Shown one piece after another: positions 8,294 to 55,570 of a stretch of 64,000 bases of DNA. Source of the DNA: Amphiscolops sp. MND2022 (Eukaryota). How positions within the stretch are numbered: position 1 is the first letter of the stretch; each line of letters begins with the position of its first letter. The translations under genes were made by a program, and so were the position numbers. Below the pieces are notes generated by a model that had not been told where the DNA came from, searched no databases, and was given only the letters and a program-made list of their open reading frames with translations. The DNA lies in assembly GCA_964187785.1 (NCBI GenBank), contig OZ076409.1, forward strand, positions 8,620,001 through 8,684,000, in the 5' to 3' direction.

Positions 8294-11200
8294 CCCCTGC
8301 AAAGTGACATTTGTTCATTGACTGAGGAGACTTCTTTTAAGGGGAGCTATTCGTTTTCCTCTGAAGATGCTGAGAAGTCATCGATGGAAGATCGACTGCT
8401 GGAAAAGAGTTCTGTGTCAATCAATTACTGTGAGATTGGGCCCAGACTACATGGCTTGTCGTCAGCGTACAATTCCTCCACCGGAGAAAGATCCGTTGAA
8501 GTCACCACCACGTCTTCCAGTTACAGCGGGTACACAAAAATAATCGAGAGTTCGGAACCCCTATCTGTGGAAAGCGTATCGAGTAACTGGCACAAAAGTT
8601 CGGTGGCTATTGAGAAAAGGGAAAAAATTACCGATGAAGGCAGTGATACCCATCTGAATCATGAAGGGCGGCCGTTTTTGAACGATAGCTGAAAAAACTG
8701 AAAAAAAACATCTTTCTTGGTTTGTGAAAAACAGTTAGGTTTGGAGCGAAAACGGAGCAAAAATTTCGAACTCTTAAGCAGGGTTATGTTTGAAAACAGA
8801 GATTGTTTCAAAACAGATTCAGTTTTTAATCGGCGCTTTATGAAGTGAAACGCGACTATTATAGTGACTTTTTTTATCCACACGAACTGACCAAAATAGT
8901 TCTTAAAAGTTCTGCAAAATATGATTGCACCAAATTGCACCATTTGGCCTAGCGAACTGAACCAAAAAAGTTTTTCCTGTTTTTCCGCGTAACATACCAT
9001 ACCGGGCGAGACCAAAGGGTCCCCCCTTTCAATTTTTTTCGGCACTGCGAAACTTTTTTCCAGAAATTTTTTTTCCCCAAAGGGTCCCCCCTTCATTTTT
9101 TTTGCTGTTTTGCGTCAGAATGGATGTTGGAAAATCCCAAAGGGTCCCCTTTCAGTTTTTTTGGCACTGTGAGATTTTTTTCCGAAAATAAAATTTTTCC
9201 CCACTTCAATTTTTTGACGTTTTGCGACAGAATGGATGTTGAAAAACCCCAAAGGGTCCCCCTTTCAGTTTTTCGGCATTGTGAGACTTTTTTTCTATTT
9301 TTTTTTCTCTCCAAAGGGTCCATCTTCAATTTCTTTGATATTTTACAACAGATTGGGTGTTTAAAAATCCCAAAGAGTCCCCCCTTCCAGTTTTTCGGCA
9401 TTGTGAGACTTTTTTTCGAAAGTTTGTTTTTTCTCCAAAGGGTTCCCATTTCAACTGCGACAAAAATGTTGACAATTTCGGAAGTGTCCCCCTTTTAGCG
9501 CGCCAGGGGCTCGCGCTAGCGGGCCCCGGCGCGCCATTCGGTCCATTTTTTTTGTTTTTCGATTTTCGAGTACTGTAAATTGACACTTGGAAGTCCTTTT
9601 GCTATTTTTGAGCCTTGGATATGGCGCCGACTTGGGCCGGTCCCGGCTTGTTAAATAAAACAATGTGTTTTTCTTAGCCAGTGAGATTCGATCACATATA
9701 AAACCACAACATACGTAAATGTACAGTTATACATTCGGACCTCAGAAATCGCCTCAATCCACAGAAAATGTCAAAATATGCATTTTCCTATCGCTTCCTA
9801 TCCTTGAATAGTAGCGATGATGCTCTCAAAGATTCTTTGTAAAATTTCCGATATTTTTTGATATTGAATATATTTTTATTCAAAATTCAAGGAATTTAAA
9901 ACAAAGTGTTTTTAAAGTTTAAAACGTTTTCAACATTAAAAACGTTTTTTATTGCAAAGAACGTTTTTAATAACAACCCTGCTCTTAAGGGCTTTATATC
10001 GACAAGAAGGGAACGCTTATTTAGGCCCGAAAAACTGAGGCCCGATAATGAAATGCTATCTGAGGTCCGAAAAGTTTATGCTAGTAATTTGAGGAAACTA
10101 AACAAACAAAAGAATTGAATTGAGACAGTACATGTATTGCTGTTCCTATTCTTGACTTATTTCCAAGCACGTTTGTGTTTAAAGAACAAACTCATCGGGG
10201 CTCAGTTTTTATAATTTCTGGCCTCAAATTACATTCGCTTCGGGCCTCAATTTTTCGGGCCTCAAATATGCTACCCGACAAGAAATGACCATGCTTCATT
10301 CATCATTCTTTGGCACGGATCAGTGAATACTCTTAAGTTTTCGAAAACTGGTTTTTGCTACAAAACCAAACTTCGAATAGTTTGTTGAATTGGGGTATTA
10401 CTTCATGAAGGAAGCGAGAGTGATTCTAGTGGGTGCTACTTTGGAAGTGGAGCTCGGAAAAACTCGCTTCTTCTCGAATTTACGTCAAGGTCAGGGTCAA
10501 GTTTCGAGGACTTATCCAATGACCTCGTGTCAATCCCCGCCGTCCCTCAAAAGACATTGGGTCAGGTCACTGCGAGGTCAGCTCATGTAGAAACAGGCCG
10601 AGAAACCTCTGTGGACGACGGGATCTGTTATGAGAACCAAGTTTCTGCGAGGTCTTTAAATTCCAATGTCGCCGGAAAAGAGGGTTGGTAAAAAACGTTC
10701 TTAAATTAGTCTTTTGATCTAGAGAATGGATCAGTTGAAATTTTAGCCTAATCGATTGTTCGTTCAAAATAACCGGTTACCGGACATCACCAATCGTTCA
10801 GCGGAGAAAACGATTTTGAGCAAATAAATTGTTGCAATGAAATGTTGAGTTGAAATTCAATCGAATTTTCATTACAAAATTAGCTTCCGCGATTTTCAAT
10901 TCGACCGAAAGATATGAAGGAGAATTTCCAAGTCCCAAATAATGTCTTATTTCCGTAAAGTTGTCAGCTTTTCTTCCTTTCATTTTTAAATAGGGGATAA
11001 GTTTCTTTCAACTGGAATAAATTTGAGAAATTGAAAATTTTATTGAATGAAATGGAGAGGAAATGAAAATATTTTGGTTTTTCCCAGTCGGCCGTTTTAG
11101 CGATTTTTGTCAGGTCTATTTTGACCCGTTCTCTGTTGTTTACTCTAAAATAGAAATCCGGAAGTGTGTTTGTTCACGTTGATAACAGTGGATTGTACAC

Positions 11201-14200: not shown

Positions 14201-17200
14201 GGCCCCTTCTAGTTTTTCGGCATTGAGATATTTTTTCGAAAAAAAAATTCACCAAAGGGTCCCCTTCAATTTTTTGATGTTTTGCAACAATGGGTGTTAA
14301 AAAATGCGAAAGGGTCCTCCCGGCACGCCATTGCGGTCCAACATTTTGGGTTTTTCAAGTACTGTAGATGAGAATACTTTGACATTTTGAAGTCCTTTTG
14401 CTAATTTTGAGCCTTAGATATGGCGCCGACTTGGGCCGGTCCCGGCTTGTCGAAATACAGTTGTAGCCTGTGTTTCAAAATATCGAATAGGGTAAAGCTC
14501 CATGCGTAAAATTTAGAGATGTGACCCGCTATTCAAACCGCTATTTGACAGCGTTTGTAGTTTCAAAATCGCTATTTCCGCTTATTCATATCCATCGCTA
14601 TAGCGATCTCTACCGCTTTTCCATTCTTCTCTACGTTGCTTAATATAACGTTTTCAAAGTTCGGATGTAACGTTTCCAACGTTTGGATATAACGTTTTTT
14701 GATGTTTTCTCAACCCTGCTCGTACAGCTTCAAGTATGCGGTCCGAGCATGAATACAATTCGAGTACCACCGCTGACAGAACTGCTGACGGAATGTCTCC
14801 TATCGGACTCTCACAGGGCAACGTCAGTTTCAAAATCATGCATGGAGCAGCCACCGAGAGTTCATTTGAGGTGTTCCAAAACGAAAGACTCACTATCCCA
14901 ATGCAGCAGCTGTCAGTTGGTCACGCAAAGGCAGGGTTTTAACATCGCTAATTTTTTCGCTAATCGCTGAACCGCTTATTTCGAATTCGCTATTTCGCTG
15001 AAAAGTTTTTCTCCAAACTATTGAATGTTTGACTTCAAGTTTTTTTTCGAAAATTGAATGATAACTTAATTCAGTTTTTGCGAGAAAAAAGGGAAGCAGA
15101 TTTTCATACTGTGTGGGTTTTACAAAAGTTAAAGCTGGAATTTTTCGAAATTCATTTTGAATCTCTGTGTATACTCTCAAGAAATTTTGATTTTGGACAA
15201 TCTTTTAGTTGCTGCTAATGTAAACGTTAATGAAATCGCTGAAAAATTTTTGCGCGGCCGCTAAATCGCTAATTAGCGGTGTCAAAACTCTGCGCAAAGG
15301 AAAACCAACTATCGAGATCATCCAAACTTGACAACCCACTGATGTTCGAAAACGAGAGAATCCTATCAATAAGCACAGAGTTCCAGTCATCGGGAGCGGA
15401 AAAAATATCGTCAAAGTTGTTCATACAATCCGAAAATGATGACGTAGATAGTGATTCGACGTTAGATGAAGACGCAGAGGATAGCATAAGTTCGAGTTTC
15501 TTCCAGCCTTGTTACTCGGATGATGTGCTAGCAGACGACGAAGATCGGTGCAGGGAATCCAGTTTGGATCTCAAAGGCAGTGATGACCAATTAATTTTTT
15601 GGAAGAAATATCAAACATTTAACGGGTAGACTTTGAATTTAAGCGATCTATTAAATGGATTTTTCCTTGAAAATGGATCGGAAAAAATGAATTTATTCAT
15701 TTTCAGAACCAAGACAAGTCAATCGCAAACGTCAATTCTGCCTTGAGAGTCTATTTCTTCGTTTCTCAGTCAGAAACGTGCCCTCGAAAACATGCGCTTT
15801 GCGATGGCAGGCGAAGGCAAGATGCCGAGGACTGATCTAGCAACCCTCTCTGGATATAAGCTAGCCAATTCAACGGCGTAATGCATACGTTGGAATTGAC
15901 GTGAAATAAAAGGGATCCCAGTAATGGTTTTTAGTCGGCGCTTTTCTAGTGAAAAGTCCCCGACTATTGCAGTGGCTAGTTTTTAGTCGGCGCTTTTCTA
16001 GTGAAAAGTGCCCGACTCTTACAGTGGCTAGTTTTTTTTCGTCAGACTACAATCTCACTCTGATTGGGCCACTTTTCTTACAATCGAAACTACTACTATA
16101 AGGCCAAGTCCGGTCAGCGGAAATTAGTGCAAAAGGGTCCCCCTTTCATTTTTTACTATTTTAACGTAACCTACAATACTGGACGAGACTAAAGGGTCCC
16201 CCCTTTCGATTTTTTTTCGTCACTGTGCGATTTTTTTTTCGAAAATTTTTTAATGTCTCAAAAGAGTCCCCCTTTCGAGTTTTTTGATATTTTGCAACAG
16301 AATATATGTTAAAGCCCAAAGGGTCCCCCTTTTACATTTTTCGGCACTATGCGACTTTTTCTGAAAGAAAAAAATTCAAAAATTTAGTTTTTTTTCAAAA
16401 AAAGTCTTTTGCGCTTTTTGAGCCTTAGATATAGCGCCGACTTTAGACGTTCCCGTCTTGTTTTCTTTTTTTTTCGTCAGACCAAATAGCTCACCCTGTA
16501 TGTACCACTTTTTGTGCATTATGCAGTTTTACCAAAAGTACTCAGCACTTGATTTTGAACACATCCAAAAGCCTATAGCTTGAAATACAAAACCCAGAAG
16601 GGTCCCCCTTTTCCAATTTTTCGGCACTATGAGACTTTCCCCGCCCCTGTTTTCGGCTCTGTGAGCCTTTTTTCATTTTTTTTGGAAATTTTTATCGAAA
16701 TGTCTCCAAAGGGTCCTTCAATTTTTTTGATATTTTGCAACTGTATGGATGTTGAAAAAGTCCAAAGCGCCCCCTTTTACATTTTTTGGCACTATGAGAC
16801 TGTTCAAAATTCTCATTTTTCGTTTTTTTTCAATTTTTTTTAATTTCGGAATTTTTTCATGTCCCCAAAGGGTCCCTCCTTCAGTTTTTTTGATATTTTG
16901 CAAAGGGTCCCCTTTTACAATTTTAATTTAAAAACTTTGCGCTTTTTGAGCCTTGGATAGAGCGCCGAATTTGGCCGTTCGCGGCATGTTGTATATTCAA
17001 TTAATGGAATATTTAAGGGATCCGTTGACCGGATTTTAAATGGGTCCCTTATTTTGATCATCACTGCTGAAAGGTGACTCAGAGCTGGACCATCCGGAAT
17101 TGAAGGGTGACGTGAGTCGTTCAACTACTGATGGCAACCTGAGTAGGTTTGACAATGAACGAAAGCATTCTTCGATGTTGAGTTCTCCCGGTAGCGCAGA

Positions 17201-23200: not shown

Positions 23201-26200
23201 CAACAATTAATTTTAACATTCCACGTCTAGTGCGTTAAAATGCAACATTTTCTAATTATTGTCACGTGGTTGAATGAATTCATTTGTAGTTGGTTTGATT
23301 ATTTCTTTCGTTTCAACCTTCAAAATGTTGGTAATTAGCTGATCAATTAAACAATTTGGGACGAATTGTCGCTTTTTACAAATGGGACGAATTGTCGCCT
23401 TTACAAAATGGGACGAATTGACGCTTGGGACGAATTGACGCTTGGGACGAATTGTCGCTTTTTGGAATTTGGGACGAATTGTCGCTTGGGACGAATTGTC
23501 GCCCAACCGCGAAATACAGGTTTGCCCTTCGATCAATATCAAAATTATCATCAATACTTCGTCTTTCAAAATTTTTCACAGGGTTTTGACTAGCTATTTT
23601 TTCGCTAAACCGCTTATTTCAAATTCTCTTTTTCACTGGAATAGTTTCTCTCCGAACTACCGAATGTTTGACTTCGAGTATATTTCAAAATGAAATGGTA
23701 ACTTTATTCAATTTTTGAGAGAAAAAAAGTAAAATTTTCCATACTGTGTGCGTTTTACTAGGGTAAGAAATGGAATTTTTCAAAATTCGTTTCGAAACTC
23801 CGTGTATGCTCAAAGCAAATTTTGAATTTCGACAATCTATTATTTGTCGCTAATTTGAATAGCTAATAAAATCGCTGAAAAACTCTTTAATGTTTAACGA
23901 TTACGTAACAAATAACATAAGAGCAAATAACATAAAAACGAGATTAGTCCCATTTAACATAAAAATGAAAATAGTTTCACATAACATAAAAATAAAACCG
24001 AATACCCGGTTAAACAATCGAACTCACGGAATTTTATATGTAATTTTCATACTTTTTTCGGTGAATCTTTTGAATTGTGAATGCCTTTTTTTAGTCGGCG
24101 CGTTTTCCTTTTAAGGAAAAATGCCCGACTATAGCAGTGACCTTTTTTAGTCGGCGCGTTTTCTTTTTAAGGAAAAATGCCCGACTATAGCAGTGACCTT
24201 TTTTTTTCTTCAGACTACAATCCTCACACTGATCGGTCCACTTTTCTTACAATTCTTACAAATCTTAAAATCTTACAATTCTGACTTAGTAAAATTAAAA
24301 TACTTGCGAAGTAGTATTTTTACATCATCTTAGAAACTCAAAGGACCAAAGGGTACGCCCTCCTTAGAGTATTTTCGGCTCTGTGAGACTTTTTTTTCGA
24401 AAAAATTTTTAATGTCTCAAAAGGGTCCCCTTTCTCATATTTTGAGGGTTTTCTCATATTTTGCAACTAAATGTATGTTAATCAATCCCAAAGGGTCCCC
24501 CCTTCTTTATTTTTCGGCACTATGCGACTTTTTTTGAATTTTTTTTTTCAAAAATTACAAGTTTTTTTCCAAAAAAAATGTTTTGCGCTTTTTGAGCCTT
24601 AGATATGGCGCCGACTTTAGACGGTCTCGTCTTGTTTGCTCTTACGTTATTTGGGAATCCACCATTTTCAATTGATTGATTGCGGGATCGTGTCAAAATA
24701 AGCAAACTATCATAATTGCCGCAGTGTTATTCATTTTAGACTTCGCCACACAGGAAATAGAAGGCGGTGCGACCCATCTTGTTGAAGTTGATCATGAAAT
24801 GGGTGCACCGAATGACGAAAGCATCGGATTTGTCGACACCCCTCGCTTCTCTGCAGGTGGCGTTGATGAGCAATTTGATACGTTGTTTGTGAACGACATC
24901 GGTGGCTGTTTGTTTTTGGACCGAAGCTTCGATGTTAGCGACATGGAGGTTGTTACTGAACTAGACGCTTCTCTGCTCAAAACGACAGTCTTGCCATCCT
25001 TGGGGTCTTTCCCAACCAGCCAGGACAGTTGCTCTTTCGTCGATGCGCTTTTGGACGAACACGGAGTGAAGGAGAATGACGTCATGTTTCTCTCTCCCAT
25101 GCCTTCCACAACCTGTTTCCCAAGCCACGATATGTCACCCTGGATTCCCCGCACCTACACCCCTGGAATTTACTCCTCCTATGGCACTGGGTCTGAATGG
25201 ACGGGGACGGAGTATACCAGCAATACTGGCAGTACATATGGTACTACTACTGTTCCCACTACCACCAAATCTAGTGGTCTGTGCGTAATAAGTGAAACAA
25301 CAACCAAACGCAGCAACCCGGTTTTTTATGCCTCAGAACACTTCGAATACAGCAGCAAATCTGACTACAGCAAGTCGAATGATCAAAAGTACGCAGAGGT
25401 TCCCCCACAAAAGGTGAGCAACCACAGTTTCGATAGACCTCTACAAAGCGACGGTGGCACGCCTTGGCCCGAAAGTTACTCCTCTGGAAACGAGATTTGC
25501 AGTTCAGTTTCAACCGAAATGGATATCGAAAAACATAGAACTCCTTTGATACAGGCTCCCAAGGTTATTGACAAAAACATCGCCCCAAGTTCAACTTTAG
25601 TTCACACGCTCTCATTCTCGGAAAAAGAAGATAATGCAAGTCTTTCCAGTAAAGACAAAGACAATTATTCCGGCAAAGGCAAATCATGGCATGGTTTCAA
25701 ATTGTTCCACGATCTCTTTGTTACGGATGATGATAAAAAAGAGAAAAAATTATCTGTCGAAGATCAGGGTTGGCATGCGATTTAAAATTGTTTTTACCTA
25801 ACCTATAAATAAGTTTTTTTTTCGTTTTGGGAACAGGTGTTTGTTACATATTTGGGGCTTTCACATTTTTCAATTGTTTACCTATATTAGAAGCATATCA
25901 GATGTTAAGTCAAGCACATCAGATGTTAAGTGAAGCATATCAGATGTTAAGTGGAGAATGTCAGATGTTAAGTGAATCGTCTCGTCTTTCGTTCCAAATT
26001 TTCAGCCAATCACTGACAACCAAACTGAAAGTGCTTTACAATCAGAAGTCAAGTGAACAATATCAGCATCCAAGTGAGTTAGCAAATAATAATCACCAAC
26101 GACGTTTCCAAATTTAACAAACGCTGACCAAAGAATGCTACATGTACACACAATCGTATGCGGTGTTCGTTCATTCAAGGTCCCATTTCGTTCACATTAG

Positions 26201-29200
26201 TTGAGATTTGCTGTAGCAAGCTAATCAAATTCTATTGGTTGTTGATTCAGTATCTGATGTGCTTCATTTAACGTGGAAACAGTGTATCTTTAAAAATAAA
26301 AACATACAAATTACCAACCCTGCCGAAGATAAACCACCCGTGTCTCCAAAGAATGGAGCGGAGGTAGACCCGAATCAGCGTCAAACCGACCATGGTGTCA
26401 AAATGGGTGTCATCTACGAAAAGGCGAAACTCTTGCCTAAAGTAGTTATTCAGTACCCCAGTAAGGAAAGAAGAAAGACTGGCTCTTTGACTGACAGCAG
26501 CACTGAACCCCCCGGGAACCCAGGGAATCATCCGGGAATCCCCAATTTGTTTGAACCTGGAAAGTTTGATTCGAGTGATTCCAAAAATCCCAATGAAAAT
26601 AATAATAACTTCTGTAGTTATTACACTGCAAGAGAGCACCAATTACCTCCGTCACCCGCTTGTAGATCCTTCACTGTTTTGGATAATCATTCTGGGAAAG
26701 CGTTCGGGGATTCGATTGGTGCTTACCACCAGCCAATCATCGTTGCCGCTGTTCTTCAACCGGATCAAGAATCGTCCATTTTTGACACCACCGGGCGGAC
26801 ATCGACTGTGGATAACAACATCAATCTGAATGCGGTGGGAAGTCCAAACGACGAAGACTTGTATCACTCAGCCGCCGATCATTTGCGCCCAAGTTCGCAA
26901 TCGGTCAGCGAAGGAGAAGGCGGTGGACGTAAAAGCAGAAGAAAAATTATCATCAAAAAACGCATCATCACTGAAGAAAGTTTCGATCTCAGTACTGGCA
27001 ATAGAAGCAGTACCGCAAACTTTGCCGCCAACCCTCGAGAAGAAGCAAATACGGGTGGGATGTCAAAGGAAGGGTCCACTAGCCAACTGGTGACTGCCAA
27101 TACCAACCTGGAAGAATACGAAGGGGAGACGGATCCGGTGTTTTCGCCCACTGTTACTTCCGAGGAGTCATCAAGTTTGAAACAGCCGGCGAATCAACAG
27201 TCCTCTTACAAAAGGACTGTCTCTATTGTGAGGAAAGAGACGAAGGATGAAACTAGTCAAGTCAGTAATCCGGATCAACGTGGAATCGTGTTTGATCTGA
27301 CTGGAGGGAACGTCGATAGTGAAAATGAGAATTTGACCGTTAATTCCGACGACGAAGAAGCGGATGCGGAGTTTCACAGCGTCGAAACTGAAATGCAAGT
27401 GCCGCCTCCTGCAAAGTACCAAACAGTGCCTGCTGCTGTAGACACCATTGAGGCACAAGCCTTGCCCGATTCAGTTCCAGAAGAGGAACCCTTTTCCTCT
27501 CCGATTGCGGATGACGCAATGAGTGCTGGAAATGCGGAAATCATCAGTGCCCGTAGCCAGCAAACCCACTATACCAATTCCTCGTATGAAAATAACTTCA
27601 TAGCCGACGTTCCGGATTCGATGGCGTCGGATTTCCGAGCTCCTGAAACTGGCGAGTCTGTTGCGACAGTTGACGGAGATTACGATGGTAATGGCGACGG
27701 AGGGTTTGACGATGACGTGTGTTCTTGCGAATGCCCGTTTTGTTACTGTCCTGATCAAGGTTGTTAAGCTGTTTTATCCATCAATAAAATACATGAAAAA
27801 AACTTGAATAAAATTATTTTTTAACAAGACGGGAACATCTAACGTCGACGCAATACCTAAAGCTCAAAAAGCGCAAAGTTTTTAAAGATGTAAAAGGGGA
27901 CCCTTTGTGTTTTTTGAAAGTCCAGTTTATTGCAAAATATCAAAAAAATTGAAAGGACCTTTTGGAGACTATAAAAAATTTTCGGAAAAAAAACGAAAAA
28001 TGAGAATTTTGAAAAAGTAGTTCTGTGAAAAAAGTGTCCACTACGCATACATTCTGTTGTCTGACGAAAAAAAATAGCCACTGTAATAGTCGGGCTTTTT
28101 ACCTTTTAACACTGTTTTTTGGACACTTTTCAGTTTTCATGGTCTGACTGTTCAATTTGTTTGCTACTTTTTGTTCACATGTCAGAACGCCTCGTGTGAA
28201 AGTGATATCTGGAAAAATCAATAAAGTGAATGACTTTTATGCTTTATATTCCTTTGTTAAATTTTTGTACAATGAAATAATATTTGGCAACAAATGAAAA
28301 ACTGGTGTGCATCACACATTGTTTTACACGATAGTATTCACAAGAGGAAAAAAACAATGAAATGCAAAAACAGTATATTTCGTTAAAAACATGTTTGAAA
28401 CATTTTCGTGAAAGAAAAACTGTATAATTAACAACGTTGGTGCTGATTCAGAGAGGGAAAACCTCTATGGTCCGCCTTCCCCGAGATACTCTGGCTCGTC
28501 TAGTTCTTCCTGCTCAGATCCCAACTGTTCCGGGCGGTATTCCAGGGGCTCAACCTCTAGTTACTGTTCGGACCCTGAATGCCAAGGTGACGTCAATCAA
28601 ATGCATTATCCCACAAACCAACATGGGTCCTACAGTTTTTCCCAAAGCTCCACTCCCGAGATGGCTTCGTTTTACGTCGAAGACGACAACACTTCTGACA
28701 ATCTGAACTCTTTCAGGCAGTGATGACCATTTTTTTGTTATTTAAAGCTAAATTAAAATGAAAATCATTTAAATATATTTTCATTAAATTTGAATGATTC
28801 ATTTAAATGATTTTTGTGCCATTTAAACGGTTTCTTAAATTTCTTTTTTTGAAGAAGTTTTTAAACTGAATGATTAAATTTATTTCAAAAATTCATTTGT
28901 AGTTTAAGCAACTAAAAGTAGTGTACGAATGTTTCTTGTATCGAGTCTGTTTCTACGGTTCGCCGTAAAAAAACGGAGCCTTTGAAAAAGCTCTCTGCGT
29001 GGGCACGTGACGCGGCAATATGCACAATATGATTAACAGCCAAAATTTTGTTGCTTTGCCAGGACGTTGTAGTTAATTACATGGCATAATCATTCAAATC
29101 TGAAAAATAAGTGGCTGTAATGAAAACACATGAACATTTAAAGAACGTTTAAATTTATATGATTCCTTTAAATGATTTGCCTTGAAAATCAGTTGAATTT

Positions 29201-29683
29201 GATTAATCAATTGAATAATCATTTGAATGATTTATTTAAATGGTCATCACTGCTTTCAGGGAATCGGTCGCTTCGGGACCATCTGCTGGTAATTCGGAAA
29301 ACTTTGTGGTCACGGTCGAAGATATGGATAGTCCTGATCGAGTTAAGCGCCACATACTTTCTGTGGTCCCTGAGATAATGGACCAATCTAGAGTTAGCAA
29401 AACGCGCAGGTTGCATATACATCAAACCAGACGAGTCACTGAAACCAACAGAATTTCCGAGAACGATGATCAATTCGAAGTTTCTCCTGAGGCCAATTAC
29501 TGGCCCCGAGAACAGCATGCCACTAGAGCAGTTAGATCGAGGAAAACCAAACGCTTCTCGGTTTCCGATCTCCCGTCTGAGGAATCAACTGTTACGAGCG
29601 TGCCAACTTCCAAGCAAAATCAACCCCCCGAAATACAACAGCACAAGTCTTCAAGATTCAACATCTTCAGGTGGCGCAAATAG
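8294..29683 (+). CDS. Large multi-exon gene, at least 3,161 aa, Ser/Glu/Asp-rich, probably disordered, function unknown (5' end not determined)
   Basis: Exons 8294-8639, 10411-10683, 11649-11824, 12667-12775, 13538-13801, 14728-14930, 15300-15576, 17074-17483, 18599-22877, 24740-25768, 26329-27759, 28452-28716 and 29260-29683 join in phase (9,486 nt, divisible by 3) and end at TAG. Donors at 11825 and 13802 are uncertain. Confidence 0.75.
8779..9981. mobile_element. Nested hAT-type MITE
   Basis: CAGGGTT...AACCCTG ends with perfect 8-bp TSD CTCTTAAG (8771-8778, 9982-9989). Confidence 0.8.
8823..9652 (+). mobile_element. HINE-like element copy (nested)
   Basis: Full termini; closely similar to 33667-34370. 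Confidence 0.75.
10009..10276. mobile_element. Foldback MITE with target duplication
   Basis: Imperfect TIR of about 37 bp, GGGAACGCTTATTTAGGCCCG / CGGGCCTCAAATATGCTACCC, flanked by GACAAGAA on both sides (8 bp, or 9 bp with the preceding C). Confidence 0.75.
10680..11637. mobile_element. Old MITE forming intron 10684-11648 (GT-AG)
   Basis: GAGGGTTGGTA / TACCAACTCTA inverted ends; TSD decayed; interior has TTATACGA repeats. Confidence 0.5.
11822..12655. mobile_element. hAT-type MITE forming the intron that ends at 12666
   Basis: 19-bp TIR CAGGGATGTGACTTTTATG / CATAAAAGTCGCATCCCTG (1 mismatch); decayed TSD GTGATAAA / GCGATGAC; contains a HINE copy at about 12190-12592. Confidence 0.75.
12995..13245 (+). 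mobile_element. tRNA-derived SINE fragment
   Basis: B-box GGTTCGAATC followed by AGCAAGTCCTTCATTCCTAGCTTAGTGG; homologous to 63160-63592 (minus). Confidence 0.55.
13396..13460 (+). pseudogene. tRNA-like relic / SINE head
   Basis: A-box TGGCTCAATTGG and B-box GGTTCGAACCC; no convincing acceptor stem. Confidence 0.4.
13799..14718. mobile_element. Old hAT-like MITE forming the intron that ends at 14727
   Basis: CAGGAATGAGCAAA / TTTTCTCAACCCTG imperfect inverted ends; TSD not recognisable; contains a HINE at about 13886-14450. Confidence 0.5.
14932..15292. mobile_element. hAT-type MITE forming intron 14931-15299 (GC-AG)
   Basis: 22-bp TIR CAGGGTTTTAACATCGCTAATT / AATTAGCGGTGTCAAAACTCTG; perfect TSD CGCAAAGG; removal gives HAK-ENQL. 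Confidence 0.9.
15578..17066. mobile_element. hAT-type MITE forming intron 15577-17073 (GC-AG)
   Basis: TIR CAGTGATGACCAA / TTGATCATCACTG; TSD CTCAAAGG / CTGAAAGG; removal gives LDLK-G-DSEL; contains tandem HINE copies at about 15927-16991. Confidence 0.85.
17749..18196 (+). mobile_element. HINE-like element copy
   Basis: Both characteristic termini present. Confidence 0.7.
23020..23506. repeat. Foldback element with tandem subterminal repeats
   Basis: Left arm GCGACAATTCGTCCCA repeats; right arm TGGGACGAATTGTCGC repeats (inverted). Confidence 0.7.
23579..23886 (+). mobile_element. Second copy of the 14932-15292 MITE family
   Basis: Starts CAGGGTTTTGAC and is collinear with 14932-15245 (ACCGCTTATTTC, GAATGTTTGACTTC, CATACTGTGTG, GACAATC). 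Confidence 0.75.
24086..24636 (+). mobile_element. HINE-like element copy with duplicated 5' hairpin
   Basis: The 5' unit TTTTAGTCGGCGCG...CCGACTATAGCAGTGACC (about 57 bp) occurs twice. Confidence 0.7.
25765..26322. mobile_element. hAT-type MITE forming intron 25769-26328 (GT-AG)
   Basis: TIR CAGGGTTGG / CCAACCCTG; TSD TCGAAGAT / CCGAAGAT; internal 21-bp tandem repeat (four units, about 25890-25975). Confidence 0.85.
27756..28439. mobile_element. hAT-type MITE forming intron 27760-28451 (GT-AG)
   Basis: TIR CAAGGTTGTTAA / TTAACAACGTTG; TSD GTCCTGAT / GTGCTGAT; intron length equals element + 8. Confidence 0.85.
28718..29252. mobile_element. hAT-type MITE forming intron 28717-29259 (GC-AG)
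   Basis: Perfect TIR CAGTGATGACCATTT / AAATGGTCATCACTG; perfect TSD CTTTCAGG; removal gives NSF-R-ESVAS. Confidence 0.9.
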
Positions 29684-35466: not shown

Positions 35467-36502
35467 AAATTTAAAATAAACTGAGATCAAAGGGTACCAC
35501 GCCAATTTTTTTCGGCAATGTAAAAAATTAAATATATTTATCTGAAAGTCCTTATGGTTTTTTTGATGTTTCAATCAAGAAACAGCGTTTTCTGTGCTCT
35601 ATCAAGAATTTTGTGCAAATTTTCAAGACGGCTCAAATCATCTGGCATTGATTAACTTTTTCAACCGACTTGGTTGGCACATATTTCCGGAATTCACATA
35701 ACCATTGGCGTGTCACGCTGTTTAGGGCTAGATAAGCTTGACAAGTAGTTAGTGGAAGAGGTGCGATGAGAACAAGTCGGGAACGGCCCAAGTCGGCGTC
35801 ATATCTAAGGCTCAAAAGTAGCAAAAGGACTTCAAAGTGTCAAGTATTCTCTTTTACAGAAACCCGAAAAAACCCAAAAGTTGGACCAAATTGGCGCGCT
35901 AAAAGGGGGAACCTTTCGGATTTTTTAACATCCATTCTGTCGCAAAATATCAATGTATCTGACTGGCCCTCTTTTTGTAAAGACTTTCAATCACGTCGCT
36001 TGTTTGGCAAGACAATTCGCCTAGTTAGCATGCGGGGTGGGGAAAACATGATTCATGGGTTCGAATCCCGCTCTGGTATAATGTTTTTAGGGTTTACGTT
36101 TTCAGCACTGTGCCAGTTTTTTTTTCGAGAACGTTCCTCTAATTTGGGTGTTTTGACGTTTAAACTTTGAAATAAAAGGTTTTTCGAGCTCGAAGGCTCC
36201 CTTCTAATAACTTTCGCACTGTGAGATTTTCCAGAGTTTTGCTGGAAGCCTTAATTCGATGCTATCAATGGTTGAAAACGATTATATTTTATAATTTTTA
36301 TAATTAAGCATCAAAAAGGGTTTCTTTTCAATATTTGACTGTAATTCCTAAATCGAAACGACTTTCGTAATGTAATCGCATGAGCATGAAACTCGGGTTG
36401 CATCAAAATAATTGCTTGTTTTTCAGAGCCCCAAAGGCCCCCCAATACCGAATTGTTTTTCCCAGTTTACGTTTCCTGTTTTTTCAGATAGAAGTGGTCC
36501 AA

Positions 36503-39500
36503 ATGTTCCATTACTCGGGCGATCTTTGGGAAAAGTGCTGTGAATGGATGGAGTTGATAGACTTTACGGCCCAGCAAAACTATCCAATTCCCTCCGTTTC
36601 CAAATCGAAGAACGAGAAAGAATTTCAAAGTGCTCTCAAAGATGGTTCAGCCCTTTGCTATTTACTGCACCACATCGACCCCGATTCCATTGACAAGAAA
36701 AATATTCGGCTCAACTGTTCAGCGTCGCGAGATCAATCCATCCACAATGCCCAAATGTTTTTGTCATCATGCGAGGACTATTACATGCAAGGGTGTTAAA
36801 ATAATAATTGTCGGGAAAATAATTAGCAATAAATAAATTGCAATTATTCATTTTTGACCAAAAGCAACACAACTTATTTAATTTTGAAGGCAATTATTGT
36901 AGCAAAATAGTTTTTGGTGTAGTTTACGCGTATGCGTAGAAATCCTAATGGGATTACCGATTTTGGAACAAAAATTGTTGCCAACCAATCTCTAAGCCGA
37001 GGTGTTCTTGCGCTCAAACAGGCCTTTTTGGGATGTACAAACTGCTTGTGAGATGAGAAACCAAGAGGCTGACAAAATCAATGATTTCGGGGGATGAAAG
37101 AATTCAATGAAAGAATTCTGGGGAAACAATTGCGCAATAATTAATTGTTTTCGGTTTGACAATAATTGAATCATGGGTTCAATAATTTATTGTTTCTCCT
37201 GAATTCAACACTCTTGATTGCATGACACTCACTTGTGACCTGTTCGAAGCATCGATTCTGTACGAGTGCCAACAACTGGACGCTGTGTTTTTGGCTCTGA
37301 GTTCTCTCAGCAAGACGATGCGATTCGCGGAAGTCATGCTCGAGAAATGCCACAATGTCCCTATTTTTGAAATACACGAGGAATTCAATGGTAAATGATT
37401 TGGCGGAAAAATGGTATTCTTGGAGTACTGTTTTCCATCTCGGAAAAGGATGAGAACCAATTTGCGTTGTTGATTTTTAGGATTCGAAAAAAATGCACTC
37501 GTACCTTTTCCCCTGACCTTTCAATGAAAATTACATGTTTCTGAAAAACTGTCCATAAGATTTCTATAAAATTTAGCACAGTCATTCTACACCCAAAGGA
37601 GGCTCCTACGTGCGCAATGGCATCAAAAGTTTATGACTAGGACTTGAGAAAGATTTAGTCCAAAAATGACCGAAAAACTGCCATTTTTTGGTCTTTTTTC
37701 GATTTTGTCAAAATCTGTCTATACGATTCGAACGAAATTCTCTTACAATCATTCTACGCCGCATTAGGGTCCTATGTGTGCAATGACATGAAAATCGTAT
37801 GACTTGGATCTGAGAAAGAATGCCAAAGATAGTCCAAAATAATGACCAAATGAAAATAAAGGACGTAATTTGTTTTCCAATATTTTAATCCGTTTCCGAC
37901 TCTTTTACCGCACATGCGGCTCCGGTTCCAAAAGCAAAAATCTACCTTTGTTGAAAGTTTGAAGACTAAATTACTGACTCTAATCTAAAATTCACTCAAA
38001 TTTCAATGGAGTTTTTGATTCACATTTTGCTTTTAAACACGTTTTTAGTCTGCGCATTTTTTATGTTCCCCTCTTCGGGATTTCCGTGTTTCAACTTTAA
38101 GATCGACAATTTTGAGCTTAGAGGGTCCTCAATCCCCGGCTTTTCGGCACTGTGCAATTTTTTAGCGATTTTTGATTTATTTTTTCAAAAATCACCATTT
38201 CAATTTTTGACGTTTCAAGTTTAAAAAGCGTTTTATGGATCCTTTGGATAATTTCCGCACCGAACTATTTCCAAAAAAATTGAGTCACCCTGAGCATAAT
38301 TTAAGGGCAGAGTTTTTGAGTCTTTAGTGGGGCGCCGACTTTAGAAGGTCTCGTCTTGTTAATCCTTCAAACAAGCAAACGCTTTCAAATATCTTTACCG
38401 CCAAACAAACAGATGAAGGAGAGGATCACATGTACCATCTAGCTGGATCCCACACCGAATCCACTTTCAATTCGGATTACATGGCATGCACACAGTTTGA
38501 GCTTTCGACGGATGACAGTGTCTACGACAGCATGATGAGTCAGTATCTCAGCACGACTCTTGCCAACACATCTGCCTCAGTCGACTCCTCGGCATCTTCT
38601 TCGATCTACGTCACCATGTCTCTATCTGACCATTCCAATGTCACGGGTTCGAACCCCATTCTCGCCGAATTATTAGAGAAGGAATCGGGTTTTATTCAGC
38701 TTCTATCGGAACTCCTTCAACTTTACAAAATAAAACTGATTAATATATCGAGTGAACATTTCGACCCAATTTTTTGCGGTGACTTGTTTGACAACATGAA
38801 GGATCTTCACGAAGAAATGAGGAGGCAAATGAATGTTGCGGGTTCGACTTCAAAGGATGAAATTGAAAATGTGTGCGATGTCTTTCAGAAAAACAAAATC
38901 AAGATAGCATCCGTGTATTCCAAATATTTCACACAGATCGATTCCAGTGTTTCAAAGTTGCAACAACTTCTGGACGAGAATCCCTTTCTCCGAGATATTT
39001 TTGAGCGCATTAAAAAAGAGGCATTTGAAGATTCTCAGTGTAAAGCATTCGATCTTTGTGTTGTGCTTCGGGTTCCGTTTCAACATGTTCTGAGGTACCA
39101 ATTGTTTTTTGATCGTTTATGTGAGAAGGTTATTCCTTCAGTAGCTCCTGGAAGCAATACTCGGCTGGTCAACACCTTGGAAAAGACAGCGGAAATGATG
39201 AAAGACTTGAATGAACATTTTAACGAGTGCAAACGCAACATGGAATCTTTACAGTATCTCTCCGTCAAGTTCAAAGATGTATTAGATTCCAGTGATCCCG
39301 AAGAAGAAGCGAAATCTTTTGGGAAATTTCTGAAAGAAGAAGAATTTCCGAAAGTAAAAGTGGGGAAATCATTTTGGAGTAAAACCGATGTACTTCTTTT
39401 CCAGAAAGCTGTCGTGTTTCACAATAAAACTAAACATCTAGTGCTTAAATTAGACACAAGTGTGGTAGATACGCACAGTAAACCAAATGTTATGACCTTT

Positions 39501-40505
39501 AGAGGAGATTCAGATTACAGAACAGTGGAATTGGTCATCAAAAATCAAGATTCATTCGATACGTGGAAAAATTTGGTTGACAAAGTTTTGGAAGTAAACT
39601 GGCTTAAAGAAAGCAATCACCACAAAGTAACTCTGGAATCTTTCGAAGACGTCGCTTTCTGTGTTGTTTCTGGGAAGATCTTGAAGGGTAGTTACAGTCA
39701 GGGTTACCAATGCTCAAAGTGTAAAGCGTGTTTCCTCGATTTGACAAGTCTCCGAAACTCCAAACCTTGTCAGAGTTCCCCGGCTACTTCTTGCAGCAAT
39801 CTTCCTGCTCTGAGAAGCTTTTTTGAGAACCACAGTTTCACAGAAAACAAAGCCCAAGTCCGCCCAACCTCACCGACTATATGCAAGGATCCTGAAAACA
39901 TAGATCTTACATCTATGACCAACCTTATTCTCGGGAGTCTCGATGAACTCTCAGAGTATCCCTGGTTCTGCCCAATCAAGAACCGAAAAACTTCCTACAA
40001 AGTTTGTTCACTGCTCCCTGAGAACACCTTTTTGGTTCGAAGAAGCGAAAACGATAGAAACTCGGCCGCTCTCATGATCAAACATAAAACGAAAGTTCAC
40101 AATATGAAGATCACTGTTTGGCCTCAAACTGGTTGTTGCGGGCTGACACAACATTTGACCTTCTCAAGTATCCCAAAACTGGTCGAGAACTTCCAAACCA
40201 ATTCTCTTTCAACCTGCATCCCAGAATTACAGACGACTCTCATTTTTCCATTCAAGGAAGGCTTGAAAAGGATGAAAAGCTCGTTGGATTCTTCAAAACA
40301 TCAGAGTTTAGCTTTTTTGAAGAGATCAGCCTCCGTTTGTATAGAGAACAATTGTTGTGAGTTGCAACCGGGTGACATTGTGATTGTTCAGTTGCAGCAA
40401 AATGATCCCAAATCTTCCAGAGTTGAAGGGTTTGTCGAAACAAAAGCAGGATCTTTCAAATCACATGAATTTTATCTTCCGGCTGACATTCTTGAACCAA
40501 TTTAG
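36503..40505 (+). CDS. vav: Vav-like Rho/Rac guanine nucleotide exchange factor (CH - acidic - DH - PH - C1 - SH2 - SH3-like), divergent
   Basis: Segments 36503-36787 (DLWEKCCEWM...ALKDGSALCYLL, CH), 37225-37390 (DLFEA...VFLALSSLS) and 38413-40505. The last has DH (VPFQHVLRYQLFF), C1 (GYQCSKC) and SH2 (YPWF...TFLVRRS...FSSIPKLVENFQ). Intron 37391-38412 is GT-AG, phase 1. Confidence 0.85.
36788..37216. mobile_element. hAT-type MITE inserted in the vav CH-domain coding sequence
   Basis: TIR CAAGGGTGTT / AACACTCTTG; TSD ATTACATG / ATTGCATG. Confidence 0.8.
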
Positions 40506-40549
40506 TTATAATTTATGCTGCTTAAATGTCGGGAGTAAGAAGTTGGATG

Positions 40550-40944
40550 CGGGACAAAACAGCCGATTTTAAAACGAGACAAAACAGCCGATTTTAAAAC
40601 GGGAAAAAACAGCCGATTTTCAAAACGGAACCAAATGAGTGCTGTTACAGCCAATATGCGTGGAACTTGATTTATTTTAAGAGGTTCATATTTGTTGTAT
40701 GGCTCGGTCGCCAAGTAGCAACACTGAGGCATGGCCATATGGCACGTCGCTTCGCTTCGCTCCTGCATTTAGGGCACTAGGGGTATGTGAACATAGCTGA
40801 CTACGTTATAATAATAGTTACTTTTACTAATCTTACTCATTGACAAAATCGGCTATTTTTATTTTACCAATCGGCTGTTTTGTCCTATTTTGAAAATCGG
40901 CTGTTTTGTCCTATTTTGAAAATCGGCTGTTTTGTCCCTCTCCC
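40550..40944. repeat. Foldback element with nested insertion
   Basis: GACAAAACAGCCGATTTT repeats versus inverted AAAATCGGCTGTTTTGTC. The interior (about 40645-40815) is an inverted homologue of about 7070-7250. Confidence 0.65.
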
Positions 40945-43362: not shown

Positions 43363-43737
43363 ACACGGAAACGTGTGTTGTGAGGCACTAGTTGCGTAGC
43401 GAAGCAACTAGGAGAAAAAGACAGCTTAGCGAAAAGAGATTCACCACGGAAACGTGTATCAATACAGGCGCTAGTTGCGTAGTGAAGCAACTAGGAAGGA
43501 AAAGACAATCTAAGGGAAAGTAACGGAACACGGAAACGTGTAAAACAGGCACTAGCTGCGTAATAAAGCAACTAGGAAGGAAAGGCAACCTAGAGGAACG
43601 TAAGTAACACGGAAACGTGTAGAACAGGCACTAGCTGCGTAGTAAAGCAACTAGGAAGGAAAGGCAACCTAGAGGAACGTAAGTAACACGGAAACGTGTA
43701 GAACAGGCACTAGCTGCGTAGGAAAGCATCTAGGAAG
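43363..43737. repeat. Tandem array of about five 80-bp double-hairpin units
   Basis: Each unit has CACG-GAAA-CGTG and CTAG(T/C)TGC-N8-GCAACTAG. Confidence 0.85.
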
Positions 43738-46152
43738 GGAAATCCTAAGTAGTTGATAAAGAAGCTGAAATTGACAGTGAGACAGAAATGTGCTAAACAA
43801 TTAAATGATGTCGAAGTAGACTCATAAGTAGGCGCACTAATATTAGGATAAACACGTGGTGGAAGTGTAGGGGCGTTGGGTGCAGTGTAATTAGATGGTT
43901 TCGGTTCAGCTTGACGAATGGTTTCGCGAGCCAGCAAAATCAGTGCGCGGAATTCAGCGTCCGTCAAATACAAAAATGGAGAATTGGTCAAATCATACTC
44001 CGCGGTAATTGATTCGACTATATTAATGAATCTACCGGAAGTAGCCCGGAAAAAGCGTTGAGGATTGGTAAAAAGACGCTGCCAATGACGTCTAAACAAA
44101 GTAAAACTTATAGAAAATGTTAAAATAGACATTGTAATGGACAATGACGAAAGTAAAAAAGCAGTACGGGTGGGTAAATATGACTGTAAAGCTGCTGATG
44201 TGGCCGGCGAGATCGAAGAATAATACTTAGCGATTGGCTCTGTCAGTTGATCTAGAGTTTCCGGCGACATGTGTTGGACGTCAGGTAGTTCGGCTAGTTC
44301 CATTCGTAGACTGCCAAGAACTGACTGACGAGCTTCACTCGTAGAATATGCCTGAAATTCGGCGCTACCAATGGCGGGTACATGCGCGAAGACTTGATTC
44401 AAAGACGGTGTCAGCTCAATCGACGCAAGAAAAGGCTCCGGCCGGGTCTCGCAAAAATCCATGTCAGGATGAAGAACCAGTTCACCCTGGTTGAAAGACA
44501 GTGTACTCGAACAGCTAGGGCGTATGACACACGCCTGACAGGTGATAGTAGAGATAGAAAGGCCGTCAATTTGGCTATCGTTTTTGAATTTGAGGGTGGG
44601 AGACCGTGATATGACGTGGTACATCCCATCCGCCAAATAAAAAGCCTGAGGAGCGTCGGGTAAAAGTACTGCGCGGACTTCGCAATTGCGTAAGGCGGGA
44701 ACATCGTAGTTATAGAACAAGGATCCTAAGCAAAGAAGAGTTTCATCGGTTGTTGTTGAGAAGCCTTTTCTACATAATTTGATACGATTGTTGCCCGAAC
44801 ATTGCTGCAGCGTGTTAGCACCGAGCTCTGCAAATCTACTATTGTCAGTAGATACTGCCAAAAAAGGGTTCGCAAAATTGAAGAGCGACGCAGTTTTCTG
44901 GTCATTGTTGGGCTGATACAGAGGCGTGGCATGGTAAATGTCAAACGTCGACGACTTTGAATTCATTGGGATCCCAAGAATGACAGATATACCACGTGGT
45001 ATCAAAGTTACTTCGAGTACTAATTGTATCTCATAGTATATTGCCTCAAAACCAGGTCGAATAGCTGGGGACAGTTTGGTGCCTCGCTTTACTTCGTCAT
45101 CTGCTAAGTCTTTGACAATTTGCGCCACTTGTTGAGGCAGAAGAAACTGAGGTGTGATGTAGCCACTAGCTAACGAGGAAATGGTGGAGTAGAGCGAAAT
45201 GCGGTAAGCGTAAAACGCTGCACGGTACGACTTGAGATGAGTGTAAAGTGTCCCTAGCTGATAGACGTAATTTCGCAAGAATTGCTGAAGGCTAAGGTGA
45301 CGAATAATCACTCTATCACACTCAAGGCTAGTCGCAGCCAAGTAGCGAGTAGCATTAACTAGGTAAAACTCCATTTGTTGGAAGCGGAGACCGACACTTT
45401 CTTTTAGTTTCTGGACACTTTCCTGGGTCTGTTTAATCTCGTTTCCTAGAAGGAAGAAATTCTTGTCGTTTCGAGTTTGAACACGCTGCAGTGTATCAAC
45501 TATTTCTTGCTGTGTGCTCATTATGCGTTCCACGTCGCGACTCAGATCTTCATTGGTGTGACAGAGATTAAATATAGAAAGCGCACTACAAGCGGCGTCT
45601 TTGATTGGTTCACCCAAGACCATTCCGGCACCTGCTGCGATTGCAGCAATAGCGGCAATTGCTCGACGTGGTCGTGCGATGTCATCAGATTGTCTAACAG
45701 CTGGTGGAATGAAAGAATTCACAACTTCCAGAAGAGTGTCTTCCTCTTGTTGAGCTGCTGCCAACTCTGTTTGCAGGAAATTGACTCTTGTCACAAGTTG
45801 TTGCAGGAGGAGGTCATAGGTGTCATTAACGTCTGTAAACTTGCAGTTTGTATTGATGTACATACCTCCGATGCTTCGAGGGGCTGTCTGGAAGGCATTG
45901 ATCATGTTAATGGCATTGGTAATGTTGATTAGAGGCATCTTGGGGAAGGGAGAGAACACGCGGACTTTGCTTTCGCTCTCCGAGGTAACAGCTTGGTATT
46001 TGAACACAAACGCTGCACCTTTCTTGAATACGGGTTTTTCCAGGTCATCGTTGAGGTGTGTTGTGAACTGCACATCCGCAAAGATCAGGACCGACCAACG
46101 GACGAACAGAAAGAGAAACCAGAAATGTTGAGAGTTTGGAAAGTAGGAAATC
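43710..46152 (-). CDS. env: Envelope glycoprotein, class I F-type fusion protein
   Basis: In-frame hydrophobic signal FWFLFLFVRWSVLIFA upstream of the called ORF. Furin site RPRR is followed by fusion peptide AIAAIAAIAAGAGMVLG, a heptad region, a Cys-rich block and TM AFLLSSLSITMSILTFSISFTLF. Confidence 0.85.
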
Positions 46153-46396
46153 CTGAAAAACAGAGGAGCCTTGTTAGGCCATTGGTGATGGGAAATGACC
46201 TGGAGAGAGAAATAAAATGCAACTATTTGAAGTTATTTCTTTTTTGTATAGTTTTTGGAACGTTTGGTGGAATGTGGCATGCTGTGCAGTGGCGGCGAGT
46301 TGAAATCGGTTAGTTCAGAAGGTATTGAGGAATTACACAGGGGTTCCGCCAATCGCTGTGTGCGTGTACTTGCGCGGAGATTGTATGGTCTGTTTA

Positions 46397-47140
46397 TCAT
46401 ATCTCAAAACTGAACAGCAGCGTTTTCAACGATGTTTCGGGATTCGTTTGACAAAGGTGAATGGGATGCTGGTGCTTGACGATAGCTTGGGTTGTCGACT
46501 GAGAAGTTGCGGGAGTGGCCATCGTCTGAACTCCAGGAGATTGAAAAGATTGGGAATGCTGATTACCGGAGAGGAAAGCGGGAGTTCGGGTTTGGGTCGG
46601 TGACTGAGCATTGTGGCTAGTTAATTGTGGCGTTGGAGTAGTCTGGTGGTTCAGGTGAGCAGGGCTGTGGAGATTCACAGGCTGCAGTGGTGGCTGTTGA
46701 AAATGCATGCAGCATCGATGCGAGGTTTCAGGTGGTGTGGTGTTCAAGTCGTTATTCCGTGTTGGGACATTGGAGTGAACTGGTTTTGTGGGCTGGGTTA
46801 AGCTAGTATTTCGAGTAGGCACATTTGAAGTAGCTGGTTTTTCGCAAAAAGGTTTCAACCTATCGTAGTGAACGATCAGCTCTTTGGACGTAGACAATTC
46901 TCTTATCTTGTATGTGACCTCATTGAAACAGTCAAGTATCACATATGGACCACGCCATGGGTTGTGGAACTTGGTTGTTTGGCCAACTGGGACCACTGGT
47001 GTGTGGAGCAACACTTTCTGTCCCTGTTCGTAGGTAGGACCATGGATCTTCTCGTTGTAAATGGCGTTGCGACGTTTTTGGTTTTTATTAATGTTGGCTC
47101 GCACTAGTTCGAAAGCTCTTTGGAAGGCCAATTTTCGATT
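46397..47140 (-). CDS. Integrase C-terminal (GPY/F) segment, in frame with pol after an internal TAA
   Basis: KFHNPWRGPYVI...VHYDRLKPF; same frame as pol (...TDFV*NRKLAFQ). Confidence 0.85.
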   Translation of the reverse strand, partial: NRKLAFQRAFELVRANINKNQKRRNAIYNEKIHGPTYEQGQKVLLHTPVVPVGQTTKFHNPWRGPYVILDCFNEVTYKIRELSTSKELIVHYDRLKPFCEKPATSNVPTRNTSLTQPTKPVHSNVPTRNNDLNTTPPETSHRCCMHFQQPPLQPVNLHSPAHLNHQTTPTPQLTSHNAQSPTQTRTPAFLSGNQHSQSFQSPGVQTMATPATSQSTTQAIVKHQHPIHLCQTNPETSLKTLLFSFEI

Positions 47141-52359: not shown

Positions 52360-52400
52360 TGTATTTGAACGCTTAAAGTCTACGTTAGGTCTAGAACGTT

Positions 52401-52799
52401 TCACATGCGATCCATTCGCAGCGGACCAAAATTGAGACTAGGTGGTTTGCAGTCGGGATAGACCAAATAGAATGGATTCGTTACGTGTATTGCTAGAAAT
52501 TGAATATGAGAAGCCCAAATATTGGATAATTGAGGGAAAAAGGACGCACAGGAAGCTTTTACACTTGCATTGTTATCAACACGACCATACGGGAAAGTTG
52601 AACAAACGTTTCGATGTTGCCAATTGTGGATAGCCTCAAGACGCAAATGAATCGACAGTTCATGTGCCGTAAAACGACGTTCTGGTTGATGCGATAATGG
52701 AATTTTGAAAAGTTTCACTTGGCAGAAGTAGCAAGGAATAACGAAGTTTTGAGGCGGTGTGTTTGACAAAACGGAAACAGGTATGCTAAAAGTATACAT
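52401..52799 (-). CDS. Pre-gag accessory ORF 2 (132 aa, CYFC and His motifs)
   Basis: ATG-initiated; packed 10 nt after ORF 1 and ending 41 nt before the gag ATG. Confidence 0.5.
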   Translation of the reverse strand: MYTFSIPVSVLSNTPPQNFVIPCYFCQVKLFKIPLSHQPERRFTAHELSIHLRLEAIHNWQHRNVCSTFPYGRVDNNASVKASCASFFPQLSNIWASHIQFLAIHVTNPFYLVYPDCKPPSLNFGPLRMDRM

Positions 52800-55102: not shown

Positions 55103-55570
55103 CAGTACTGTGATTAAGAAATCGTCCCCATGTGACGTTCTCAGCCAATCAAAATTGTTCATTTGGTCTCTCTTTCAATTCTGATTGGCGCATGAAGAGA
55201 AATTCACGTAAATTTAGGAAATTTTACCTTTTGAGCCTGATATTTCGGAAACGGTTGATCATTTTTGAAATCAAAATATATCTATCGATTCAGTAGATTT
55301 TTGGGAGTTAAATGAGCTTAAAATTTGTCAAAAAATCTGTGGATAAAACGGTCAAAAATAAGAAAAACGGCAAAAATTCCCAATTTTGCTGAAAATCAGC
55401 TATTTGTAACTTTCTCAATTTTTGTCTCAGAAATTTTTTTAAAAATACTAATGTAAACTAGATGAAATTCTAAGAAACTTTTATTTCTGATGTTTTTCAA
55501 AATTTCCAACCGATTTTGAGAAAATCGAGCCTAAAAACGTCCGGGGGACATTTCCTTAATCACAGTACTT
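55103..55570. mobile_element. Tc1/mariner-type MITE
   Basis: TIR of about 27 bp, CAGTACTGTGATTAAG...GTCCCC, flanked by TA on both sides. Confidence 0.7.

Follow-up and report, generated by a model that had tools for sequence, protein, structure and literature searches.

The CH exon of a vav gene in the window (the whole 64-kb stretch of DNA analysed) is split by a 429-bp insert that, by its sequence features, is a hAT-type MITE. It is one of at least seven MITEs that lie within open frames in the window. The six neighbouring elements look like introner-type introns and are likely spliced, each having an in-frame AG in or beside the end of its TSD, whereas the vav copy lacks this feature and is not a clean introner on its sequence. 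The reading tentatively preferred here is that the vav MITE behaves like an introner-type intron, though an imperfect one, and is spliced to an AG further downstream, so that the CH domain would be damaged while Vav would stay in frame.

The vav gene and its exons

The predicted product shows the Vav-family domain order CH, DH, C1 and SH2. Pfam places a CH domain in 36503–36787 (E 8e-12) and RhoGEF, SH2 and a C1 match under the curated cut-off in the large exon; the PH and C-terminal SH3 regions give no Pfam match, and both align to the Symsagittifera roscoffensis protein. This vav-like protein of an acoel (XP_063715064) is the best named relative, with 35% identity end to end, which makes an acoel the likely host. 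The N-terminal half of the CH domain (36503–36787) matches VAV1/VAV3 PDB chains and is 32% identical to S. roscoffensis Vav. Upon exact removal of the element, vav would encode 847 aa and terminate at the stop codon 40503–5. As the preliminary description had stated, the rest of the gene is intact: outside the insert it is open, with a single predicted GT-AG intron and then a single exon running to the stop.

36479..36487, + strand: T-rich CAG acceptor, 16 nt 5′ of the start codon; putative acceptor of a cis intron or a spliced leader
36503..36787, + strand: vav codons 1–95, N-terminal part of CH (Pfam, PDB-chain matches, identity to S. roscoffensis Vav)
37225..37390, + strand: C-terminal part of CH and linker; 8/9 hydrophobic columns common to all homologues kept
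37391..38412, + strand: putative ordinary GT-AG intron, phase-compatible, joining the CH exon to the last exon
38413..40505, + strand: last vav exon, fully open, with the acidic region, DH, C1, SH2 and C-terminus

Judging from protein N-termini (P0003/P0006 versus P0005), S. roscoffensis vav appears to have an intron of its own that falls about 4 codons past the insertion site, in the codon that contains TG 37235 in the window. A further Vav-like ORF, P0002, is 56% identical and lies on a 229-kb ENA contig; it may be a paralogue or the orthologue of a sister species. Spliced-leader trans-splicing is reported for 30.2% of S. roscoffensis genes (PMC9911081).

A hAT-type MITE in the CH exon

The element occupies 36788–37216 and is bounded by TIRs that match at 12/15 positions and have CA..TG ends. 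Short TIRs with such ends are a hAT terminus motif. The flanking TSD copies, 36780–36787 and 37217–37224, match at 7/8 positions and differ at position 4, in line with the single-base divergence described earlier; an 8-bp duplication is also described for Ac (PMC2921059). The element is non-coding, with stops in both flanking frames and no ORF of 90 codons wholly inside it, and the final stop in the downstream frame lies at 37183.

36780..36787, + strand: TSD copy 1, exonic; GC donor 36787 consists of its last G and the first C of the element
36788..37216, unstranded: hAT-type MITE, 429 bp, defined by TIR, TSD and stops
36788..36802, + strand: left TIR, with candidate donors GG 36792, GT 36793 and GT 36795
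37202..37216, + strand: right TIR, 12/15 complementary to the left TIR
37217..37224, + strand: TSD copy 2, one mismatch; ends AT-G versus AG-G in four neighbouring elements and supplies the in-frame ATG 37222
37234..37237, + strand: TG dinucleotides ending 14 and 12 nt upstream of the first AG; candidate TG-AG tandem acceptors that would spare Leu-Phe
37248..37249, + strand: first AG past the element (GAAG); frame kept from GT 36795 (net −6 codons) or from GG 36792 (net −7)

Excision of 36788–37224 (437 nt, the element plus one TSD copy) yields an open frame, and the resulting junction is gap-free and in register with nine Vav CH domains, that of S. roscoffensis among them, which bears out the CH spacing noted in the preliminary description. 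By chance, the TIR+TSD pattern yields 1–2 matches per shuffled 64 kb under loose criteria (6 shuffles) and 7–10 per window under looser ones (3 shuffles); the insertion is judged real because the CH continuation is exactly in frame and in register, not from the TIR+TSD pattern alone. An old intron with slipped borders is ruled out by the coincidence of TSD, TIR and exact register.

No sister copy of the element is present in the 64-kb window, and its end has no match in the JGI metagenomes, where the vav protein likewise finds none. Rfam returns no match. Protein searches and a representative search produced neither an element-free allele nor a transcript-derived full-length protein of the host species, an absence that carries little weight.

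Neighbouring exon-embedded MITEs

Six further elements of like build (8-bp TSD plus TIR) interrupt long open frames of + strand neighbour genes, so that the vav element belongs to a dense local set, a setting that the preliminary description does not mention. Five come from the 14 matches of a TSD+TIR scan, and the element at 8641 was found by eye. The neighbour exons are predicted from the length of their open frames and by a codon model for which the same genes formed part of the training set; none of the 13 ORFs of these genes has a Pfam match.

8641..10403, + strand: exon-embedded MITE, exact GC-AG solution; found by eye
14932..15292, + strand: exon-embedded MITE, exact GC-AG solution
15578..17066, + strand: exon-embedded MITE, exact GC-AG solution
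25765..26322, + strand: exon-embedded MITE; GT in the TIR, AG in the TSD, net +2 codons
27756..28439, + strand: exon-embedded MITE; GT in the TIR, AG 4 nt past the TSD, net 0
28718..29252, + strand: exon-embedded MITE; TIR 15/15, TSD 8/8, exact GC-AG solution

An in-frame GC/GT-AG solution exists for each of the six, its AG lying −2 to +4 nt from the TSD end, and all thus show the introner features at the level of sequence. Specifically, in four of them the TSD ends AGG, its last G and the element's first C form a GC donor, the second TSD copy supplies the AG, and removal is exact. The other two would be spliced from a GT at position 5 of the element, in one case to an AG that precedes the TSD end by 2 nt (net +2 codons) and in the other to an AG that follows it by 4 nt (net 0). 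The predicted acceptors are AAG in 4/6, without a strong pyrimidine tract, and GAAG in 2/6. One left terminus is common to three neighbours and another to two. When insertion of the element ends is simulated at 8,399 coding sites, a solution arises at 12–28% per element, giving a joint value of 2e-5 for all six, within a search window (−2 to +4 nt) that was set after the data had been seen. Because every neighbour has its in-frame AG near the TSD end against so low a joint null, non-AG ends would appear to be rarely tolerated here.

Seven of the other scan rows (3034, 8779, 11186, 24570, 28288, 30428 and 58546) were dropped as lying in repeats or without long open frames on both flanks, and the row at 45276, inside a continuous retroelement ORF, was taken as chance.

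Three older candidates carry more decayed TSDs (5/8, 5/8 and 3/8) and an AG 1–3 nt past the TSD end. In the order listed below, the closest donor that keeps the frame is GT, GG and GA, with canonical alternatives further away.

10680–11637: decayed element; GT donor (position 5) and an AG that follows the TSD by 3 nt
11822–12655: TIR 14/15, flanked by two probable exons; length would be kept only by a splice from GG donor 11825 (7/9 consensus match) to AG 12666
13799–14718: older element between probable exons; best near donor GA 13802 (6/9) or a weak GC 13808

For 11822–12655 the nearest canonical donors lie 15–18 nt upstream of the element and would cost 6–7 codons. An AG end is found in all nine other candidate MITE introns (9/10 with the vav copy included) as well as in the three ordinary introns examined.

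Splice options at the vav element

The vav TSD ends ATG, one base off the AGG of the four exact neighbours, and for this reason an exact cut at vav would define a GC..AT intron (36787–37223). The site shares with introners a transposable element inside a coding exon and the presence of candidate donors (GC 36787, GT 36793 and GT 36795); it departs from them in having no AG in or beside the TSD for near-exact removal. An AG occurs at 37112–3 and the next at 37248–9, the stretch 37114–37247 being AG-free, which agrees with the earlier observation that no AG lies between the stop near 37183 and the GAAG. The first AG is thus 25 nt past the TSD, a gap that long occurring at only 9% of simulated sites.

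Donor strength was scored against the familiar U1 consensus. GC 36787 matches at 6/9 positions and is the best donor at the left end, GT 36795 at only 3/9, and both have T at −1, a position occupied by G in all 12 other predicted donors.

The preliminary description had concluded that no usable AG acceptor exists, which overstates the case. AG 37248–9 is in frame with GT 36795 and GG 36792, and GAAG acceptors are predicted in two of the six neighbours; on these grounds the GAAG is probably usable as an acceptor. GC 36787 and GT 36793 have in-frame partners further on, at AGs 37301 and 37310. Other routes were rejected: AGs inside the element are ruled out by in-frame stops down to 37183; slide positions that start AT, as a U12-type AT-AC intron would, end in TG or GC; and an ancestral AGG target mutated in both TSD copies would need two identical changes.

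Under the preferred reading, insertion into an 8-bp target ending in G would join that G to the CA.. terminus and create a GC donor, the TIR adding GT donors, and selection would retain insertions with an AG at the TSD end. Since the vav target would have ended in ATG, scanning would pass on to the first AG (37248–9). Joining of GT 36795 or GG 36792 to this AG would keep the frame at the cost of 6–7 codons, including L101 and F102. Less likely, GC 36787 or GT 36793 would join AG 37301 or 37310, with a loss of 24–29 codons.

Points counted in favour of the downstream-AG reading are the AGs beside the TSD ends of all six neighbours and of the three older candidates, the AAG/GAAG acceptors among the neighbours, the in-frame position of the first AG, the intact vav ORF, the TSD divergence across the seven elements and the likely presence of the insertion in a second contig. 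In human, moreover, a TG serves as acceptor only where an AG is close by, and mutation of AG to TG diverts splicing to adjacent AGs (PMC2374985). Counted against it are the weak GT 36795, the non-canonical GG 36792, and an in-frame status that is weak evidence, as the first AG would be in frame by chance in 60% of cases for this element. Further points against it are the loss of conserved residues from an ordered CH stretch, the lower CH profile score (90 versus 106 bits), and a CH domain that keeps its hydrophobic columns as if still selected.

Predicted effect on the CH domain and state of the gene

Splicing to 37249 would remove L101, invariant in 9/9 homologues, and F102, present in 8/9. 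In the AlphaFold model of the S. roscoffensis CH domain, the matching stretch is well ordered (block pLDDT 95–97) and joins two helices via a short helix. The CH profile assigns 106 bits to the product of exact removal, 102–103 to the TG-tandem products, 90 to the first-AG product and 80 to the N-terminal half alone. Of 27 all-hydrophobic CH columns, 24 are kept, and the three lost include the first codon past the TSD. In mammalian Vav1, a 66-aa CH deletion deregulates the protein (PMC4601183), which supports for that protein the earlier remark on CH-less Vav; by analogy, a CH-damaged product would have weakened autoinhibition.

Among large-exon products, P0004 is identical to the window and P0001 shows 12 differences in 691 residues. 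Two truncated CH ORFs end in three element-derived codons, one from a contig of P0001's size (157,631) and one from a contig of P0004's. These are likely two haplotypes that both carry the insertion, the ORFs being paired with their contigs only by equal size. The possibility, named in the preliminary description as a counter-case, that the insertion is a rare null allele is weakened to that extent, as the second contig, likely the other haplotype, encodes the same truncated CH ORF with its element-derived codons. The 691-aa product is stop-free in both contigs, both CH halves are open in the window, and over 80 residues the CH N-half does not differ between the contigs (chance P = 0.25).

Across the seven elements, 5/56 positions differ between paired TSD copies, pointing to divergence of a few percent since the elements inserted; for the vav copy (1/8) the error is wide. 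Under assumed neutral rates, a dead ORF would keep its whole reading frame with P = 0.05 if divergence is 1% and 1e-6 if it is 4.5%; for the CH halves alone the same rates give P = 0.59 and 0.09. Because of these survival odds and the retained CH hydrophobic columns, the catalytic part is probably under selection and the CH exon probably still translated.

Alternative readings

The preliminary description had raised three possibilities, a non-AG acceptor, loss of part of the CH domain, and a transcript starting downstream; all remain and together cover most of the probability.

Use of a non-AG acceptor, leaving CH intact, is doubtful. The intron would be either the exact GC..AT form, 36787–37223, or a TG-AG tandem in which GT 36793 or GT 36795 joins a TG 14 or 12 nt upstream of the AG (net −2 codons). 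The exact form has the geometry of the four GC-AG neighbours but for one base and would use the best-matching donor at the left end, GC 36787, although the T at −1 speaks against that donor. The products of both forms fit the CH profile best (102–106 versus 90 bits), and CH is conserved on both sides of the insert. A predicted RNA fold pairs the element ends (z −2.8), as expected of any TIR element, and the apparent S. roscoffensis intron at the codon of TG 37235 coincides with one of the candidate acceptors. Moreover, the simplest reading of two older neighbours gives them GG and GA donors, a hint of a lax spliceosome. Set against these points are the AG end of every other candidate MITE intron in the set and the rarity of human TG sites, which account for ~0.01% of candidate motifs and in no case act alone as acceptor (PMC2374985).

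A wider form of this reading, speculative and of low probability, holds that hAT MITE introns are dense in the acoel lineage (7–10 in ~30 kb of genes) and that the spliceosome has loosened in response, with vav spliced as an exact GC..AT intron and two neighbours through GG and GA donors.

It is distinctly unlikely that the insertion has inactivated, or is inactivating, this vav copy, with the null persisting and perhaps backed by a paralogue. A premature stop three codons into the element, likely to trigger nonsense-mediated decay, would be consistent with it, as would the lack of a clean splice solution, the amino-acid differences between the two contigs and P0002 as a potential paralogue. 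However, a 691-aa product free of stops in either contig, together with the open CH halves, argues against a dead copy, as does neutral survival at P ≤ 0.05 beyond 1% divergence under the assumed rates. The TSD divergence falls in the would-be intronic copy, while copy 1 keeps a conserved aromatic residue, and invertebrates usually have a single Vav (PMC4601183).

Least probable is a protein without the CH N-terminus, made by a start in or after the element, by CH-exon skipping or by SL trans-splicing to acceptor 38412: in-frame ATGs at 37222 (in TSD copy 2, past the last stop at 37183) and 38430 and the common SL trans-splicing of S. roscoffensis (PMC9911081) would allow it, but an out-of-frame ATG directly after acceptor 38412 opens a 9-codon ORF overlapping ATG 38430, and the CH N-half is open and unchanged between the contigs, the latter being weak evidence given its chance level.

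Comparison with known introns

The maize hAT element Ds is reportedly spliced imprecisely from exons, as in wx-m9, with a donor near the terminus, a host-exon acceptor and an in-frame lesion. That case is a recent mutant allele, whereas the vav insertion is likely old and common to two haplotypes.

Introners have been described as IE1 in Micromonas and as GC-AG introners in dinoflagellates (PMC11282704; PMC12130899). The elements of the window resemble them in a MITE lying in an exon, a GC/GT donor from the element end, an AG co-opted from the TSD or exon, and an aquatic host; they differ in that no AG lies within or close to the TSD of the vav copy and in being diverged and of several families rather than near-identical copies. 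The MITE introns of Fritillaria borealis are likewise TSD/TIR-bearing introns of an animal, and ..AT 3′ ends occur there (PMC13326754; PMC11282704). Most introns of that species, however, break GT-AG (AG-AC, AG-AT), and its U2AF is duplicated (PMC13326754; PMC11282704), whereas here all candidates except the vav copy have an AG end, the donors are GC/GT and perhaps GG/GA, and a majority of non-GT/AG introns is not seen.

Human U2 TG-AG tandems offer a parallel: the TG there lies no more than 28 nt from an AG (PMC2374985), and at vav the weak AG is preceded by TG 37235 at 14 nt and TG 37237 at 12 nt, with TG 37216 and TG 37220 falling outside that distance. The human tandems were demonstrated by ESTs and RT-PCR and are always an alternative form (PMC2374985), while the tandem considered here is a possibility read from sequence. 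CH-truncated oncogenic Vav1 is alike in lost CH integrity and relieved autoinhibition (PMC4601183), but the acoel-type protein is only 35% identical even to S. roscoffensis Vav, and the effect is argued by analogy.

A limited literature search turned up no acoel in which introners or non-canonical introns had been reported. The main text and the supplements searched of PMC12130899 contain no acoel name, the available part of the S. roscoffensis genome paper (PMC9911081) has no mention of MITE, and none of the queried dinucleotide pairs occurs in the available text of PMC6310983.

If the neighbours are spliced as predicted, the window would record a dense burst of introner-type intron gain in acoels and would display a selective filter directly, with only insertions that have an AG at the TSD end surviving. 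The vav copy would then be a test case for the outcome when that AG is missing. Among the outcomes, only a non-AG acceptor would surprise a splicing specialist, and if GC..AT splicing with GG/GA donors were true, an animal lineage besides larvacean tunicates would have transposon-made introns relaxing its splice code, at an early stage.

Other features of the window

The regions 8174–17717 and 18551–29683 (+ strand) appear to hold one large gene, or two, of low-complexity Ser/acidic sequence and lacking a Pfam match; most of the introns predicted there are MITE-derived. Further TIR elements with 8-bp TSDs occur in intronic or intergenic DNA (8779–9981, 11186–11618, 40545–40944 and 55111–55562); two of these are nested in MITE introns, and their TSDs do not end AGG. 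The region 43713–52437 (− strand) resembles an LTR retrotransposon, with a gag-like ORF, a pol comprising protease, RT, RNase H, a weak Macro match and integrase, and an 840-codon env-like ORF without Pfam match. The segment 41483–42136 is seemingly repeated at 53483–54175, as judged by eye, and the two copies may be the LTRs of this retroelement.
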